Positions 1-4,547 of a stretch of 25,337 nucleotides of DNA are shown piece by piece (within the stretch, counting starts at the first letter, position 1; each line of letters starts with the position of its first letter). The DNA is from a virus. Taxonomy: Duplodnaviria > Heunggongvirae > Uroviricota > Caudoviricetes. The stretch lies in IMG/VR virus record IMGVR_UViG_2711768004_000002. One strand, given 5' to 3'. A program made the translations under genes and the position numbers. Below the pieces are notes generated by a model. It did not search any database. It worked only from the letters and a program-made list of their open reading frames with translations, and had not been told where the DNA came from.

Positions 1-35
1 GAACAGGAGGGACAGCTGATAGAAACAGAAGCCAC
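1..35 (-). CDS. insA: IS1 InsA, first 11 codons only (partial, runs off the window)
   Basis: Reverse complement of 1-35 reads GTG GCT TCT GTT TCT ATC AGC TGT CCC TCC TGT TC, i.e. (M)ASVSISCPSC, the InsA N-terminus with GTG start at 33-35. Too short for the ORF track. Confidence 0.6.
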   Translation of the reverse strand, partial: MASVSISCPSC

Positions 36-90
36 TGGAGCACCTCAAAAACACCATCATACACTAAATCAGTAAGTTGGCAGCATCACC
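1..90 (-). mobile_element. IS1 insertion sequence, terminal 90 bp (element continues beyond the left edge of the window)
   Basis: Positions 1-90 are the reverse complement of the IS1 left end as I recall it (GGTGATGCTGCCAACTTACTGATTTAGTGTATGATGGTGTTTTTGAGGTGCTCCAGTGGCTTCTGTTTCTATCAGCTGTCCCTCCTGTTC). The ~23-bp terminal inverted repeat is at 68-90. Sequence after 90 is unrelated AT-rich DNA. Confidence 0.85.
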
Positions 91-472
91 AGCCTTCTTG
101 AGGCTACCACCTGTTTTCAGGTGTCATTCAGACGTGATTTGCCCCAGATTGGGAAAGCACGCTTTTTTCTCAGCTATCGTCCTCTTATTTTGCCGTTACA
201 TTTCTTTTTGCATTCTAATGATTAATTTACAATAATAATATCGGTAATTATTGAGTAATAATAAATTAATTATTGCAAATGTAATTTAATTCCATCTTCG
301 CGTTATATTCCAATCTTTAATCTCCGCATGGAACAAGTTGCATGCGTGACTATATTAAGACGACTTATAACCACCAAAACATTTGCTTTGCAAGCAAAAA
401 CAGTGACCATTGACTCTAAGAAAATTCCGATCTATTGTTAGGGTCATCAAAGTTACTTAACAGTATTCCGAA

Positions 473-574
473 ATGAAAATACAAAGCAAGCTAATTGTCT
501 TATTAAACATTATTATTGCATTTATATTATTTGAGCTTTTAGCTCAAAAATTTGGTTTGAGTACATTATTTTAA
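473..574 (+). CDS. hypothetical small hydrophobic protein, 33 aa (MKIQSKLIVLLNIIIAFILFELLAQKFGLSTLF)
   Basis: ATG at 473 to TAA at 572-574, hand-translated. Predominantly hydrophobic, consistent with a single transmembrane helix. No convincing Shine-Dalgarno upstream, and AT-rich DNA yields such ORFs by chance, so this is speculative. Confidence 0.2.
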   Translation: MKIQSKLIVLLNIIIAFILFELLAQKFGLSTLF

Positions 575-723
575 AGCAAGATAAACAATATCGGGCACTC
601 TAGTTTTTATAATTAACAATTAAACGTCCATAAAATGTTATTTACTTTTCTTCGCTATTGTCATATCTTAATATAGTGGCTTACGCCACTCTACTTTCAT
701 CACATTTTGTACGTTTATGTACT

Positions 724-753
724 CGCCATGAAGCTCTTTCATGGCGATTTTTT
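724..753 (+). terminator. candidate rho-independent terminator, plus-strand orientation
   Basis: Inverted repeat CGCCATGAA(724-732) / TTCATGGCG(738-746) with a 5-nt loop, followed by the T-run ATTTTTTATT (747-756). The reverse-complement context is not U-rich, so it is directional. Confidence 0.5.
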
Positions 754-839
754 ATTCTTAATCCAAGAACATACTCCCTACCTATAGCAAAATCACTTTT
801 TTAACAAAAGAATAACGTATTTAGGTAATCATTACGAAT

Positions 840-1452
840 TTACCCTATAGGTGCTACTGGCCATTCAATATCCGGTGCAGTTGATGTATCAACACGGTTC
901 AGCAACACCCGATACTTTTTCCAAGCTTCCAGCAACAAGGTTTCTTTCTCCGTTGCGATCTCCAGATCCACAGCATCCTGAAGCGGCGCTATATGCTCAC
1001 TGGCTACCTGCATCAGGCTGTTTTTTGTTTCTTCCGCCTCCCGGATCCGGAACAGTTTTTCTGCTTCCGTATCCTTCACCCAGGCTGTGCCGTTCCACTT
1101 CTGAAACTCNNNNNNNNNNNNNNNNNNNNNNNNNNNNNNNNNNNNNNNNNNNNNNNNNNNNNNNNNNNNNNNNNNNNNNNNNNNNNNNNNNNNNNNNNNN
1201 NNNNNNNNNNNNNNNNNNNNNNNNNNNNNNNNNNNNNNNNNNNNNNNNNNNNNNNNNNNNNNNNNNNNNNNNNNNNNNNNNNNNNNNNNNNNNNNNNNNN
1301 NNNNNNNNNNNNNNNNNNNNNNNNNNNNNNNNNNNNNNNNNNNNNNNNNNNNNNNNNNNNNNNNNNNNNNNNNNNNNNNNNNNNNNNNNNNNNNNNNNNN
1401 NNNNNNNNNNNNNTTTTATGGTCCGTGCTTGTTCACTCATTCTGAATGCCAT
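840..1452 (-). CDS. tfa: tail fiber assembly protein Tfa (interior replaced by the N run at 1110-1413)
   Basis: N-terminal [13 protein letters not shown] (ORF 997-1452) and C-terminal [33 protein letters not shown]...[10 protein letters not shown] (ORF 840-1079) both match lambda Tfa as I recall it. The ATG overlaps the stf stop (TAATG). Frame continuity across the gap cannot be verified. Confidence 0.85.
1110..1413. other. run of N (assembly gap or masked sequence)
   Basis: 304 consecutive n characters in the sequence. Confidence 0.99.
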
Positions 1453-4400
1453 TATGCGAGCCTCACAATATAGTTAAATGCGATGTTTTTGACGGTGTTT
1501 TCCGCGTTACCAGCAGCGTTAACGGTGATGGTGTGTCCATGTGAACCAATCGCAACAGAGTGCGTATGAGCACCAATACCGACAGTATGCGCGTGTGCAC
1601 CCGCAGATGCTGCTGTGCCGGACAGTGAGTGTGTATGGTTTCCTTCTGAAGATGATTTACCTACCCATTGGGAGGTGCCACTGGTTAATGAGCCACTGAT
1701 ACCAACCTGATTAGTCCCGCTAACTTGAGTACTCCCTGCCGGAAACATTCCAGTAGGTTGACTCCCGCTATTCGTTCTGGGCCCAGTCTGACTATGTTGG
1801 TGGGCCCCAGCTGAACTTGTAGAGCCGCTCAGACTGTGCGTATGCGCCCCGGTGTTATTCGTGGATTTAGTGCCGTAATCAAACGACGATGTGGTTTTCG
1901 TCCCCAAATCCGTACTGGATGCGCTGGCGCTGTGGGTGTGCGATTTAATGCCATCCTGTTCCTGAGACAATACGGCACGACCACTGGCGGGCTTGCCCTT
2001 AATCGTCCAGCCACGCATATCAGGGATCACGCCTGACGGATAAGCGGCTGCAAGTTTCGGGTAAGCAGATTTGTCAAAAGTCTGCCCCTGCATCAGGGCA
2101 TAACCAGACGGAACGGTATCTGATGGCCACGGGATTGGTGCACCGACTGGATAAAACTCTGCAGGAGGATGAGCCGAGGTGTAAAGCTGCGCCCACGGCG
2201 ACCAGTTTGCGTCGGTCGTATCCCGTCGTGAACGAATAAATGCCGGAGCATGAGCACCGCTTGTACCACTCCAGCCGATGAGTAACTCACCTTCGCCAAC
2301 GGCTGTCATCCCTTTCAGGTGAATGATATTTCCATACGCTGTTGGATATCCGTTGTTATACACCTCGTATAACTCAAGACCTGCTGCCCCCTGCGTATTG
2401 TCTGTCAGCGCGGCTACCCGACCTTTTGAAGCCAGATTAACTGATGATACTGCTGTTCCACCTGACGGTAGCGCCCCGATCTCTGATGCCGTTGGCTTAT
2501 TTCTGGAGTTATAGTCCCTTCGCCAGCCAGGTGAATAATCTGTTCCGTGATTAATATAGGTAAACTGGGCGTTGGTTGTTCCGCCACCGCTGGATGTGGT
2601 CGGAGTGGTAATGCGGATCGTCATCGCTGACTTTATCCCCATTACTTCAATGACAGCTCCGGCGAGATGAATATTACCGCAGCCAGTATCAGTAATGATT
2701 TTATTATTGCCATAAGACCAGGAACCCTTGCACATCCAGTATGGATGGTTAAATGCTCCCTGAGAATCCAGCCACTCGATAAACTGTGCAGTCGTCCAGT
2801 TTCCTGTTGTTGTGCTTACTGACCCACCGAAGGCACGGCAGGCACCAATATTTTTCGTAAAGGTGTCTTTGCCAGGGATATCCGCACCGTTCTGATCTTT
2901 CTGCAGACGTTTCTCAGCATTGTCATTGGCTGCTTTTACTGCCTTTGGCGTTGCCGCCAGCGTTTCAGACGTGCTGTTGGTCGCGCTGCTTAGCTGGATT
3001 ATCCCTTTCTGTGCTGTCGTTGCATCCTGTGCGGTGTATTTCCCGTTAGCCAGGTCATACGCGGCCTTAACGGCTTTTGGTGTTGCCGCCAGTGACTCGG
3101 AAGTGCTGTTAGTCGCACTACTGAGCTGTACTATCCCCTTTTTCGTCGTGCTCGCATCCTCAAGCGCCACGGCGGATGCAATATCCTCTGCCCGTTTTGC
3201 CGCTGTCTCAGCGCGCGTTGCTGCAGATTCCGCCGTACTTTTGCTCTGAGCTGCTGCCGTCGCACTACCAGCAGCCTCTGTCGCCTTCGTGGATGCCGTC
3301 GTGGCGCTGCCCTTCGCTGCTGACGCCTGTCTGGTCGCCTCATCTTTTGAAGCAGACGCCGATGATGCCGATGACGCCGCCGAACTGGCGGACGATGCGG
3401 CAGCCGTTTTTGAGGATTCTGCACGGGTTTCCGACGCTTTCGCGTTCGTTTCGGATGTCTTCGCTGCGGAAGCTGACCTCGCTGCTGCCGTGGCCTGCTC
3501 AGTGGCTTCGCCAGCCTTCGTTGTGGCTGTTGAAGCGGATGATGCGGCGCTTTCTGCCGATTTTCCGGCGGCGGTGGCACTGGCTGAGGCCTGCCCGGCA
3601 CTTGTTGACGCGGCGCTGGCAGACGACGCAGCCGCTGTTTTTGAGCCTGCCGCAGCTGAGGCACTCTGTCCCGCTGCCGTTTCAGAAGACCTGGCGTTCG
3701 TCTCGGACGTTTTGGCCGCCTTCGCAGAATTTGCAGCCGCCGTCGCCGAGGAAGCTGCGCTACTGGCGCTTGATGATGCGTTCGTTTCTGATGATTTTGC
3801 CGCCTCTTTTGAAGCCGACGCATCCCGGGCTGAGGTGGCAGCTTCTGACGCTTTCGTGGTCGCGGTGGATGCAGAAGTGGCTGCTGATTGTTGTGACGCT
3901 GCCGCATTCGTTTCTAACGTTTTCGCCGCACCGGCACTGGTAGCCGCCGCGCTTTTTGAGGACTCTGCAGCGGCAGCACTTTTTGAGGCTTCAGTGGCCT
4001 TTGTTGATGCCGTTCCTGCGCTGGAAGACGCTGACTGAGCCGACGAAGCGGCCTGTCCGGCTGACGTGCTGGCTGCACGTGCTGAATCTGCAGCATCAGT
4101 CGCATGGGTTGCCGCCTCACGGGCTGATGTGCTGGCATCGCTGGCTGATTTCTTCGCGGCTGCCGTGTTCTGTGCCACCGCGGACGCGTTACGCGCCACC
4201 TCTTCCACCATCAGCTCAAAACGGCGCAGTGCCTCCGGACGGGCATCATCCTCCGTCATGGCACCGAGAAAATCATTCAGCGTACCGGGTCGGGAATCTT
4301 CATACACGGTGATGGTCCCGGCATGTGACGGCGGGAATCCTTCCACCAACAGAATAACGCTGTACTGACCGTACTCAACGTCCATGCTGTAACGCCCGGC

Positions 4401-4535
4401 TTCATCCGGATTTTCTGAGGCCAGCGTGTTCACCACCACCGTGGTGCTGTTACGTTTTGCTTTCAGCTGGATTGTGCAGTTCTGTACCGGTTTTCCTGTG
4501 CCGTCTTTCAGTACACCTGAAATCTTTACTGCCAT
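1452..4535 (-). CDS. stf: side tail fiber protein Stf (about 1027 aa, mosaic)
   Basis: ORF 1452-4541; start taken at the third codon ([29 protein letters not shown]) as in lambda Stf. The C-terminal block ([15 protein letters not shown]...HTHS...[28 protein letters not shown]) also matches lambda Stf. The centre is Ala/Ser/Thr-rich low complexity plus a tandemly duplicated fibre-repeat motif. Confidence 0.9.
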
Positions 4536-4547
4536 ATTCACCCCACA

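Follow-up and report, generated by a model that had tools for sequence, protein, structure and literature searches.

Small membrane proteins of the YncL class were missed in bacteria for decades, and the roles now emerging for them are membrane depolarization, metabolic silencing, and the survival of stress. The second kind of element of interest here is the phage moron, in its textbook layout a gene added beside the tail genes that brings a promoter and a terminator with it and deviates in base composition. The moron concept reportedly goes back to Juhala, Hendrix, and colleagues, and bor and lom of lambda and gp15 of HK97 are said to be examples. Here, we describe a unit that appears to combine the two, in a stretch of 25,337 nucleotides of a tailed phage (Caudoviricetes; IMG/VR record IMGVR_UViG_2711768004_000002) that is referred to below, in its entirety, as the window. 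The element in question is a 33-codon gene resembling yncL, found in an AT-rich segment (positions 91-839) between the end of an IS1 element and tfa, the gene for the tail fiber assembly protein. On the sequence evidence set out below, we put at about 0.65 the probability that the plus-strand unit at 410-757 is a self-contained moron, consisting of a promoter, the 33-codon gene, and an intrinsic terminator, and placed beside tfa at the cargo end of the phage genome.

The closest described protein, YncL of Escherichia coli K-12, has been detected as a stress-induced small protein of the inner membrane (PMC12542507). When it is produced, the membrane potential dissipates, the phage-shock response is induced, protein synthesis falls, and the nucleoid condenses; its overproduction depolarizes cells and reduces their viability (PMC12542507). 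YncL is a substrate of RseP in vivo and is degraded in an RseP-dependent manner (PMC10470546). In Salmonella, yncL is contained in a short σS-dependent transcript that was first catalogued as a small RNA (sRNA), STnc1110 (PMC5437024), and the Rac prophage sRNA KilS has the yncL mRNA among its partners in RIL-seq (RNA interaction by ligation and sequencing; PMC8175672).

The preliminary description of the segment had noticed a hydrophobic open reading frame (ORF) of 33 amino acids (aa) at 473-574 and proposed a hidden Markov model search with the peptide. Such a search of NCBIfam (18,950 models, E-value limit of 10) returned NF000537, "stress response membrane protein YncL," as its sole match, with E-values of 1.3e-5 and 3.7e-5 for two variants of the peptide, over model positions 1-28 of 30; Pfam, PHROGs, and PADLOC gave no family match for it. 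Aligned by BLASTP with K-12 YncL (MNVSSRTVVLINFFAAVGLFTLISMRFGWFI), the peptide is identical at 11 of 28 positions (39%) and positive at 18 (64%), from Met1 onward and without a gap. The score was matched by none of 20,000 full shuffles and by at most 1 of 20,000 segment-preserving shuffles, which control for hydrophobic composition and for the polar-hydrophobic-polar layout. In a six-frame tblastn search of 94 kb of K-12 DNA, a set that includes hokD, ynfT, ynaM, and many membrane-protein genes, yncL was the best match for both variants, at about 28 bits versus 21 for the runner-up. The two peptides are of similar hydropathy, with a grand average (GRAVY) of 1.5 and a best 17-aa window of 2.9 here and values of 1.3 and 2.3 for YncL. 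Database entries of 52-71 aa that cluster with YncL were rejected as unrelated upstream ORFs.

Comparison of copies indicates that the 33-codon ORF is under purifying selection, in this frame only, and that it is a real, selectively maintained gene. It is intact in 57 of 57 assessable loci (the window, the annotated loci, and 48 IMG/VR contigs found via the 3' element discussed below), which between them encode four variants of the peptide, and a scan that uses the ORF returns essentially the same loci as the scan with the 3' element. Most copies are >94% identical. Two, L007 and L009, are diverged, being ~75% identical to the window, and are found in decayed prophages in which tfa is reduced to fragments. 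Their alignment with the window preserves the ATG, exactly 33 codons, and the TAA, and gives MKIQSKLIILLNIIFALILFKLLAQKFGLYTLF as the diverged peptide. Directly behind the stop codon come a 5-bp deletion and then 55 nt of only 57% identity. By the Nei-Gojobori method, the window and the diverged copies are separated by 11 synonymous and 7 nonsynonymous differences (pS 0.56, pN 0.088), giving a ratio of nonsynonymous to synonymous divergence (dN/dS) of 0.09. The corresponding ratio against the sit-type copies is 0.04, and the two other frames, taken as a control, give 0.37 and 6.0. The differences are distributed 7/1/10 over the three codon positions (Fisher p = 2e-5).

These figures bear on the most skeptical explanation, according to which a chance ORF and a fortuitous hairpin lie in decaying AT-rich cargo DNA and owe their conservation to recent common ancestry. 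Short hydrophobic ORFs are common in AT-rich DNA, this one has no Shine-Dalgarno sequence, and many of the >94% identical copies are not independent. However, the ~75% identical copies keep frame, length, start, and stop at a dN/dS of 0.09, whereas their flanks have fallen to 57-60% identity with indels; the other ORFs at 303-450 are all destroyed; and the similarity of the peptide is specifically to YncL. We regard a chance origin as very improbable. The preliminary description, which had kept it as an alternative and had correctly noted the want of a clear ribosome-binding site, named conservation no greater than neutral drift and an origin as the decayed 3' end of a known gene as grounds for refutation; the ORF is conserved well beyond neutral drift, the segment did not arise by decay from the 3' end of a larger gene, and the chance-ORF alternative is effectively excluded. 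The neighboring ORFs at 328-441 and 342-413 on the plus strand and at 303-410 and 355-450 on the minus strand were rejected as candidates, as they carry stops or frameshifts or have lost the start codon in other copies. The first of these, broken in other copies, is annotated in phage PhiR70_1 as a hypothetical protein.

The signals around the gene are what would be expected of a moron. A search for a promoter upstream of 473, also proposed at the outset, found the σ70-type promoter-like site TTGACT-17-TATTGT, which would place the transcription start near 445-447. In L007, TTGACT-17-TATCGT stands at the same position, and the 720 bp scanned there contain no other promoter-like match on either strand; the promoter region is 79-81% identical in the diverged copies versus 57-72% in neighboring noncoding stretches. 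The sequence of the -10 region is TCTATTGT, and position -13 is a C. A C at this position resembles a σS-type -10 element. We infer, and only infer, that the site may be of the σS type, as Salmonella yncL is σS-dependent (PMC5437024). Downstream, the stem-loop and T-run that had been noted at 724-753 form a predicted Rho-independent terminator with a stem of 10-11 bp, including five G-C pairs, followed by TTTTTTATTC; its z-score is -6, and 0 of 200 shuffles were as stable. Nine of the ten stem pairs are invariant, and the site is the only plus-strand terminator-like site in L007. The terminator is predicted to act on the plus strand only, because no U-run follows the stem on the minus strand, and 83 bp separate its end from the stop codon of the convergent tfa gene. 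A terminator scan found no minus-strand terminator between tfa and the unit, and the minus-strand promoter-like matches of the window are not kept in the diverged copy.

The block at 262-839 always accompanies tfa, whatever adjoins it on the other side, be it an AraC-family gene (lambda attachment site), ydfJ (Qin site), or sitABCD; prophages from three different chromosomal sites share this linkage of the unit to tfa and differ in the cargo on its far side. Purifying selection, the position-conserved promoter-like site and terminator, and the similarity to YncL together favor a small-protein unit, or small membrane moron, which is one of the possibilities that the preliminary description had put forward.

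Several observations weigh against this reading. The selection test consists of about 18 substitutions in essentially three lineages, and one frameshifted allele (P0018) occurs, on a metagenomic contig. The promoter-like site is a consensus match only, at 9 of 12 positions, and no Shine-Dalgarno sequence precedes the ATG, whereas K-12 yncL has AGGTGG; the probability that the start codon is unpaired, ~0.5 here and 0.42 for K-12 yncL, does not discriminate. Homology between transmembrane peptides of 30 aa is inherently hard to prove. With NF000537 scores of 25.0 and 23.5 bits, against a curated equivalog cut-off of 35, the peptide is not classed as YncL itself; by sequence, it is at most a diverged YncL paralogue. 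Any physiological effect of the peptide would be extrapolated from the overproduction of a protein to which it is 39% identical. Finally, the stretch at 687-747, in the 3' untranslated region (3' UTR), is more conserved than the ORF: among 38 unique sequences, 4 of 61 columns vary there, compared with 24 of the 102 that make up the ORF and 45-50% in the flanks. Given this conservation, the unit may have a product besides the protein, or one that matters more than it does.

This last point is the core of a different explanation, in which the unit is a dual-function or mainly RNA-level element. Cleavage of the 3' end of the mRNA by RNase E, or transcription from an internal promoter, would give an sRNA that starts at ~630 or 675 and ends at 757; it would act by Hfq-dependent base pairing with host or phage mRNAs, and the ORF would be an additional product. 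The block at 687-747 is indeed the most conserved stretch of the segment, and 675-755 differs from the diverged copies at only 5 of 81 positions, against a divergence of 40-56% at neutral sites (binomial p < 1e-5). A minus-strand ORF that overlaps it (668-742) was rejected as a gene, being open only because the DNA is conserved; it shows five nonsynonymous changes to one synonymous, and coding therefore does not explain the conservation of the 3' block. The layout is typical of enterobacterial Hfq-binding sRNAs. Both stem changes in hairpin 1 (C-G to U-G and U-A to U-G) retain pairing, and a -10-like TATAAT at 608-613, within the variable 3' UTR, is kept as TACAAT in the diverged copies and could be a second, internal promoter. 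There is also a precedent in the Salmonella yncL transcript, with its history as a catalogued sRNA (PMC5437024).

Other observations fit such an RNA less well. A search of 91-839 against Rfam found no family at threshold. The nearest, MicC (22.8 bits versus a threshold of 90) and Esr41 (15.6 versus 102), were rejected; the likeness is mostly to the terminator, and the MicC-like 5' motif is lost in the diverged copies. Variation is too low for a covariation test, with 97% of cells paired and 27 of 43 pairs never varying. The 3' block is never found without the ORF, and 630-674, which would contain a seed, is more variable than the rest. In one locus (L010, E. coli NCTC9064), an 80-bp deletion between short overlapping repeats has taken out the equivalent of 607-686, and with it the variable 3' UTR and hairpin 1, while the ORF and the terminator are kept. 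The strong coding signal excludes a purely noncoding reading. On balance, we consider a dual-function element, or one acting mainly at the RNA level, to be unlikely. A more specific version, in which the transcript would be both the mRNA for a YncL-like depolarizing peptide and the source of an Hfq-binding 3' UTR sRNA (~675-757) that rewires gene expression in the lysogen, seems to us unlikely.

The preliminary description had also likened the peptide to type I toxins. In a type I toxin-antitoxin system, a membrane-depolarizing peptide would have its translation repressed by an antisense or partly complementary RNA of the same locus. The size, hydrophobicity, and charge pattern of the peptide fit type I toxins, the overproduction of YncL depolarizes cells (PMC12542507), and RseP-dependent turnover is common to YncL and the Hok toxins (PMC10470546). 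The predicted transcript folds more stably than its shuffles (z = -4.4), with a possible long-range pairing, a Hok-like fold-back, between the start-codon region (460-479) and 646-661 in which one compensatory change, A-U to G-C, has occurred; the adjoining second helix is broken in many sequences. What such a system most needs was not found. Over the unit there is no conserved minus-strand promoter or terminator, and nearby there is no conserved complementary repeat, the inverted repeats that exist being AT-rich, only 73-76% complementary, and partly located in DNA that is missing elsewhere. The peptide gives no match to the known families of type I toxins in NCBIfam, in Pfam, or in PADLOC. 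To our knowledge, chromosomal yncL has no antitoxin either. The suggestion thus fares poorly, and we give it little credence.

In lambdoid phages, morons near the tail genes, such as cor and HK97 gp15, are known exclusion factors. An analogous role in superinfection exclusion or abortive infection would have the inner-membrane peptide block the entry of phage DNA or collapse the membrane potential, and the linkage to tfa and stf would then reflect co-selection with tail-fiber specificity. The invariable linkage to tfa across integration sites is consistent with this, as is the persistence of an intact unit in decayed prophages, which suggests a benefit to the host. However, the unit may be linked to tfa simply because it is located where the late operon ends, a stress function like that of YncL would explain retention equally well, and there is no similarity to any PADLOC or PHROG family. 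An exclusion function appears decidedly unlikely to us.

If the unit is a YncL-like moron, its operation might be pictured as follows. In the lysogen, with the late operon silent, host RNA polymerase would make a monocistronic transcript of ~310 nt, from ~445 to ~755, which would be translated from an AU-rich leader lacking a Shine-Dalgarno sequence. The peptide would enter the inner membrane as a single helix and, like overproduced YncL (PMC12542507), could lower the membrane potential, leading to a stress or low-metabolism state, or could modulate the envelope in some other way. The near-invariant 3' UTR block at 687-747 would probably serve RNA stability or processing, or an added RNA-level function. 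In the lytic cycle, since no minus-strand terminator was found between the two, transcription reading through from tfa would cross the unit in antisense and probably silence it. We infer from this arrangement that the unit would be expressed in the lysogen and dampened in lytic growth. The features on which this picture draws, together with those of the surrounding DNA, are collected in Table 1.

Table 1. Features of the left end of the window, with positions in window coordinates; a dot marks features to which no strand is assigned
Feature	Position	Strand	Basis or remarks
IS1 terminal 90 bp, cut by the window edge, outer end abutting 91	1-90	.	100% identity to annotated IS1-family transposase element ends, >5000 plasmid records
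Right-hand 85 bp of a prophage-end module of at least 386 bp, with IS1 inserted within	91-175	.	93-100% identity matches
Very AT-rich spacer, only in loci carrying the AraC-family gene; conserved feature not detected	176-261	.	Absent from Qin-site and sit-site copies
Upstream noncoding part of the tfa-linked module, with conserved patches	262-409	+	All ORFs broken in diverged copies (alignment)
σ70-type promoter-like site, TTGACT-17 nt-TATTGT	410-438	+	Consensus scan; 35 nt upstream of the ATG
yncL-like gene, 33 aa, single-pass hydrophobic; ATG start, TAA stop	473-574	+	Peptide MKIQSKLIVLLNIIIAFILFELLAQKFGLSTLF
Variable 3' UTR	575-674	+	In diverged copies, 575-629 57% identical with indels, 630-674 78% identical
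Hairpin 1, AGUGGC-UUAC-GCCACU	675-690	+	ΔG -8.9 kcal/mol, z -3.9
U/A-rich linker, CUCUACUUUCAUCAYAUUUUGUACGUUUAUGUAC	691-722	+	2/32 columns vary in at least 2 of 38 unique sequences (3 vary at all)
Predicted Rho-independent terminator; stem 723-747, loop GCUCU, U-tract 748-757	723-757	+	ΔG -15.2 kcal/mol
tfa (tail fiber assembly protein), last late-operon gene, convergent with the yncL-like unit	840-1452	-	Pfam PF02413 Caudo_TAP, E 1.2e-31
stf	1452-4541	-	Next after tfa

By megablast, 1343 of 5426 complete E. coli genomes contain the segment at 91-839 or a part of it; every match is chromosomal, and none is annotated. The block at 600-770 alone is present in 827 of the 5426 (~15%). The segment also occurs in four phage records, including those of mEp332, PhiR70_1, and ev099, whereas the Qin and Rac prophages of K-12 hold no copy or remnant of the unit. 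In the two decayed prophages, L007 (2892-2991 and 3596-3754) and L009, the yncL-like module is flanked on both sides by 3' fragments of tfa and adjoins sitD and a major facilitator superfamily efflux gene; the small gene, the promoter-like site, and the terminator are intact there despite the decay of the prophage. Neither the 3' element nor a codon-degenerate pattern of the ORF was found in any of 185,579 species-representative genomes. The gene therefore appears to belong to the accessory (prophage) genome of E. coli.

It has also escaped annotation, being absent from RefSeq/PGAP annotation as well as from PHROGs, Pfam, and PADLOC. Among ~15 billion predicted proteins, the exact peptide has only two entries, both unnamed and from outside NCBI. 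An exhaustive HMMER search of 1.8 billion representatives returned only the peptide itself and the frameshift allele, in a library of a size at which similarity of the level seen with YncL cannot reach significance. A tblastn search of phages with the peptide found no match even though identical DNA is present there, presumably as a result of the low-complexity filter. A string search of the literature yielded nothing relevant on the peptide or the RNA.

The base composition of the region sets it apart from the late genes, as the preliminary description had it: in 200-nt windows, the G+C content across 101-900 is 26-36%, versus 44-64% in tfa and stf and 50-64% in the late genes. The same description was right that the segment lies between IS1 and tfa and that 91-839 holds no ORF of 60 aa or more; the longest are of 52 aa (77-235, with its start inside IS1) and 48 aa (658-804). 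Both tfa, also annotated as tfa or tfaQ in related loci, and stf are encoded on the minus strand and adjoin the segment, which therefore lies downstream of the late operon. The view of the segment as a single orphan block could not be upheld, as it is composed of three modules (91-175, 176-261, and 262-839) that differ in their distributions. Its further suggestion of a degraded cargo remnant holds for 91-261 only, where intact loci run on for ~750 bp to the AraC-family gene, and fails for the rest.

Homology to intact loci begins exactly at 91. The first module, 91-175, also occurs by itself: hundreds of genomes have a match to it, at 93-100% identity, but nothing of the remaining segment. 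In two further loci (L062 and L061), the homology extends to the left past the IS1 junction, as far as the positions equivalent to 3700 and 3873 of locus L004, and ends at window position 175, so that IS1 must have landed inside the module. The complete module (L004 3700-4085, of which the right end corresponds to window 91-175) spans at least 386 bp and recurs in many E. coli prophages unrelated to one another, close to their chromosome-proximal end; its neighbors are NleG/DUF1076-type effector genes in an O26 strain and, in another strain, a diguanylate cyclase gene. It contains a tRNA-like 3' fragment (L004 ~3831-3890) with partial Rfam matches, in which ARAGORN finds no intact tRNA. The module is probably an old attachment-site scar that now marks a joint at which cargo is exchanged.

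In copies at the Qin and sit sites, homology starts at 262 or 294. In intact loci of the other type, the AT-rich tract leads to a 247-aa YdeO/GadX-like gene of the AraC family (L004 2501-3244, minus strand), beyond which lie IS remnants and then int/xis or bioA-ybhB. The product matches YdeO with an E-value of 2e-43, a score below the cut-off. The gene is a prophage-borne regulator of the acid-resistance type with an AT-rich upstream region of ~1.5 kb. IS1 cuts off this side of the locus, and the sequence past IS1 lies outside the window.

Upstream of the promoter-like site, noncoding patches at 296-360 are conserved, and GGAACAAGTTGC at 330-341 is invariant in all copies. The patches could be a regulator-binding site, or could be due to chance. 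There is also a 25-nt complementarity (76%) between 336-360 and 666-690. On the other side, a run of 304 Ns masks the middle of tfa (1110-1413), and ORFs called across it, such as 851-1477 on the plus strand and 997-1452 on the minus strand, are artefacts. Rfam IS009 (RF02111) gives a full-length match of 218 bits, versus a threshold of 117, at 880-1078 on the minus strand. As the match sits entirely within the 3' half of tfa, it was rejected as a part of the small-gene unit, and this family of "sRNA candidates" appears to be tail-fiber-assembly coding DNA.

What these results would add, if the reading of a YncL-like moron is right, is a diverged YncL paralogue that travels as cargo of lambda-like phages, is under purifying selection, and is carried by no fewer than 827 of the 5426 complete E. 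coli genomes. It is a concrete small-protein gene to add to annotation, and the pair formed by the core and the phage-borne paralogue offers a natural comparison for the function of YncL-type peptides. A tractable system is at hand in phage mEp332 (PV340541), which carries the unit and plates on K-12. The analysis also flags a 3' UTR block of ~60 nt that is more conserved than the ORF. The value is incremental, chiefly in annotation and the generation of hypotheses, and an existing family is extended rather than a new principle established. Should the dual-function reading be the true one, the unit would be a previously unseen lysogenic-conversion module of a small protein plus an sRNA, present in ~15% of complete E. 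coli genomes.

Set beside the systems with which we began, the locus has most in common with yncL (b4598 in K-12). The peptides are of near-equal length (33 aa here, 31 aa in YncL) and share a short, polar, positively charged N terminus and one hydrophobic helix with Asn12, followed by [KR]-F-G, and both genes form short stand-alone units with a terminator hairpin of their own. They differ in that yncL is found at the core patD-yncL-ortT locus, whereas the gene described here is carried beside tfa in prophages at three or more integration sites, has a 150-nt 3' UTR that includes a highly conserved block, shares no DNA similarity with the yncL locus, and is limited to a subset of E. coli strains, being present in no species-representative genome. 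In its layout, the unit resembles the phage morons, with its own promoter-like site and terminator, its deviant G+C content, its position in the cargo region, and its dispensability for the virion; it is much smaller than they are, is convergent with the late operon, has no PHROG match, and is unrelated to bor, lom, cor, and gp15.

The likenesses extend to RNAs and to toxins. Coding and 3' UTR-derived sRNAs, such as STnc1110/yncL of Salmonella, SgrS/SgrT, and KilS of Rac, likewise combine a short transcript and a small ORF with an sRNA-like 3' end, and the succession of a hairpin, a U/A-rich single strand, and a terminator with a U-tail recalls the Hfq-dependent sRNAs, although here with no Rfam match. 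The type I toxins (Hok, Ldr, TisB, Ibs, ShoB, ZorO, and DinQ) are, like this peptide, hydrophobic and of ~30 aa with a single helix; they differ in that no antitoxin RNA was found here. In position, the nearest counterparts are YnfT and YnaM of the K-12 Qin and Rac prophages (L063 7891-8004 and L064 26294-26407), which are identical hydrophobic proteins of 37 aa. Their genes occupy the same end of a lambdoid prophage, run counter to tfa, and lie between the tail-fiber genes and the junction with the chromosome, but they have no sequence similarity to the peptide and are separated from tfa by pin and ydfK/ynaE. Genes for small membrane proteins may thus be a recurrent type of cargo at the tail-fiber end of prophages.

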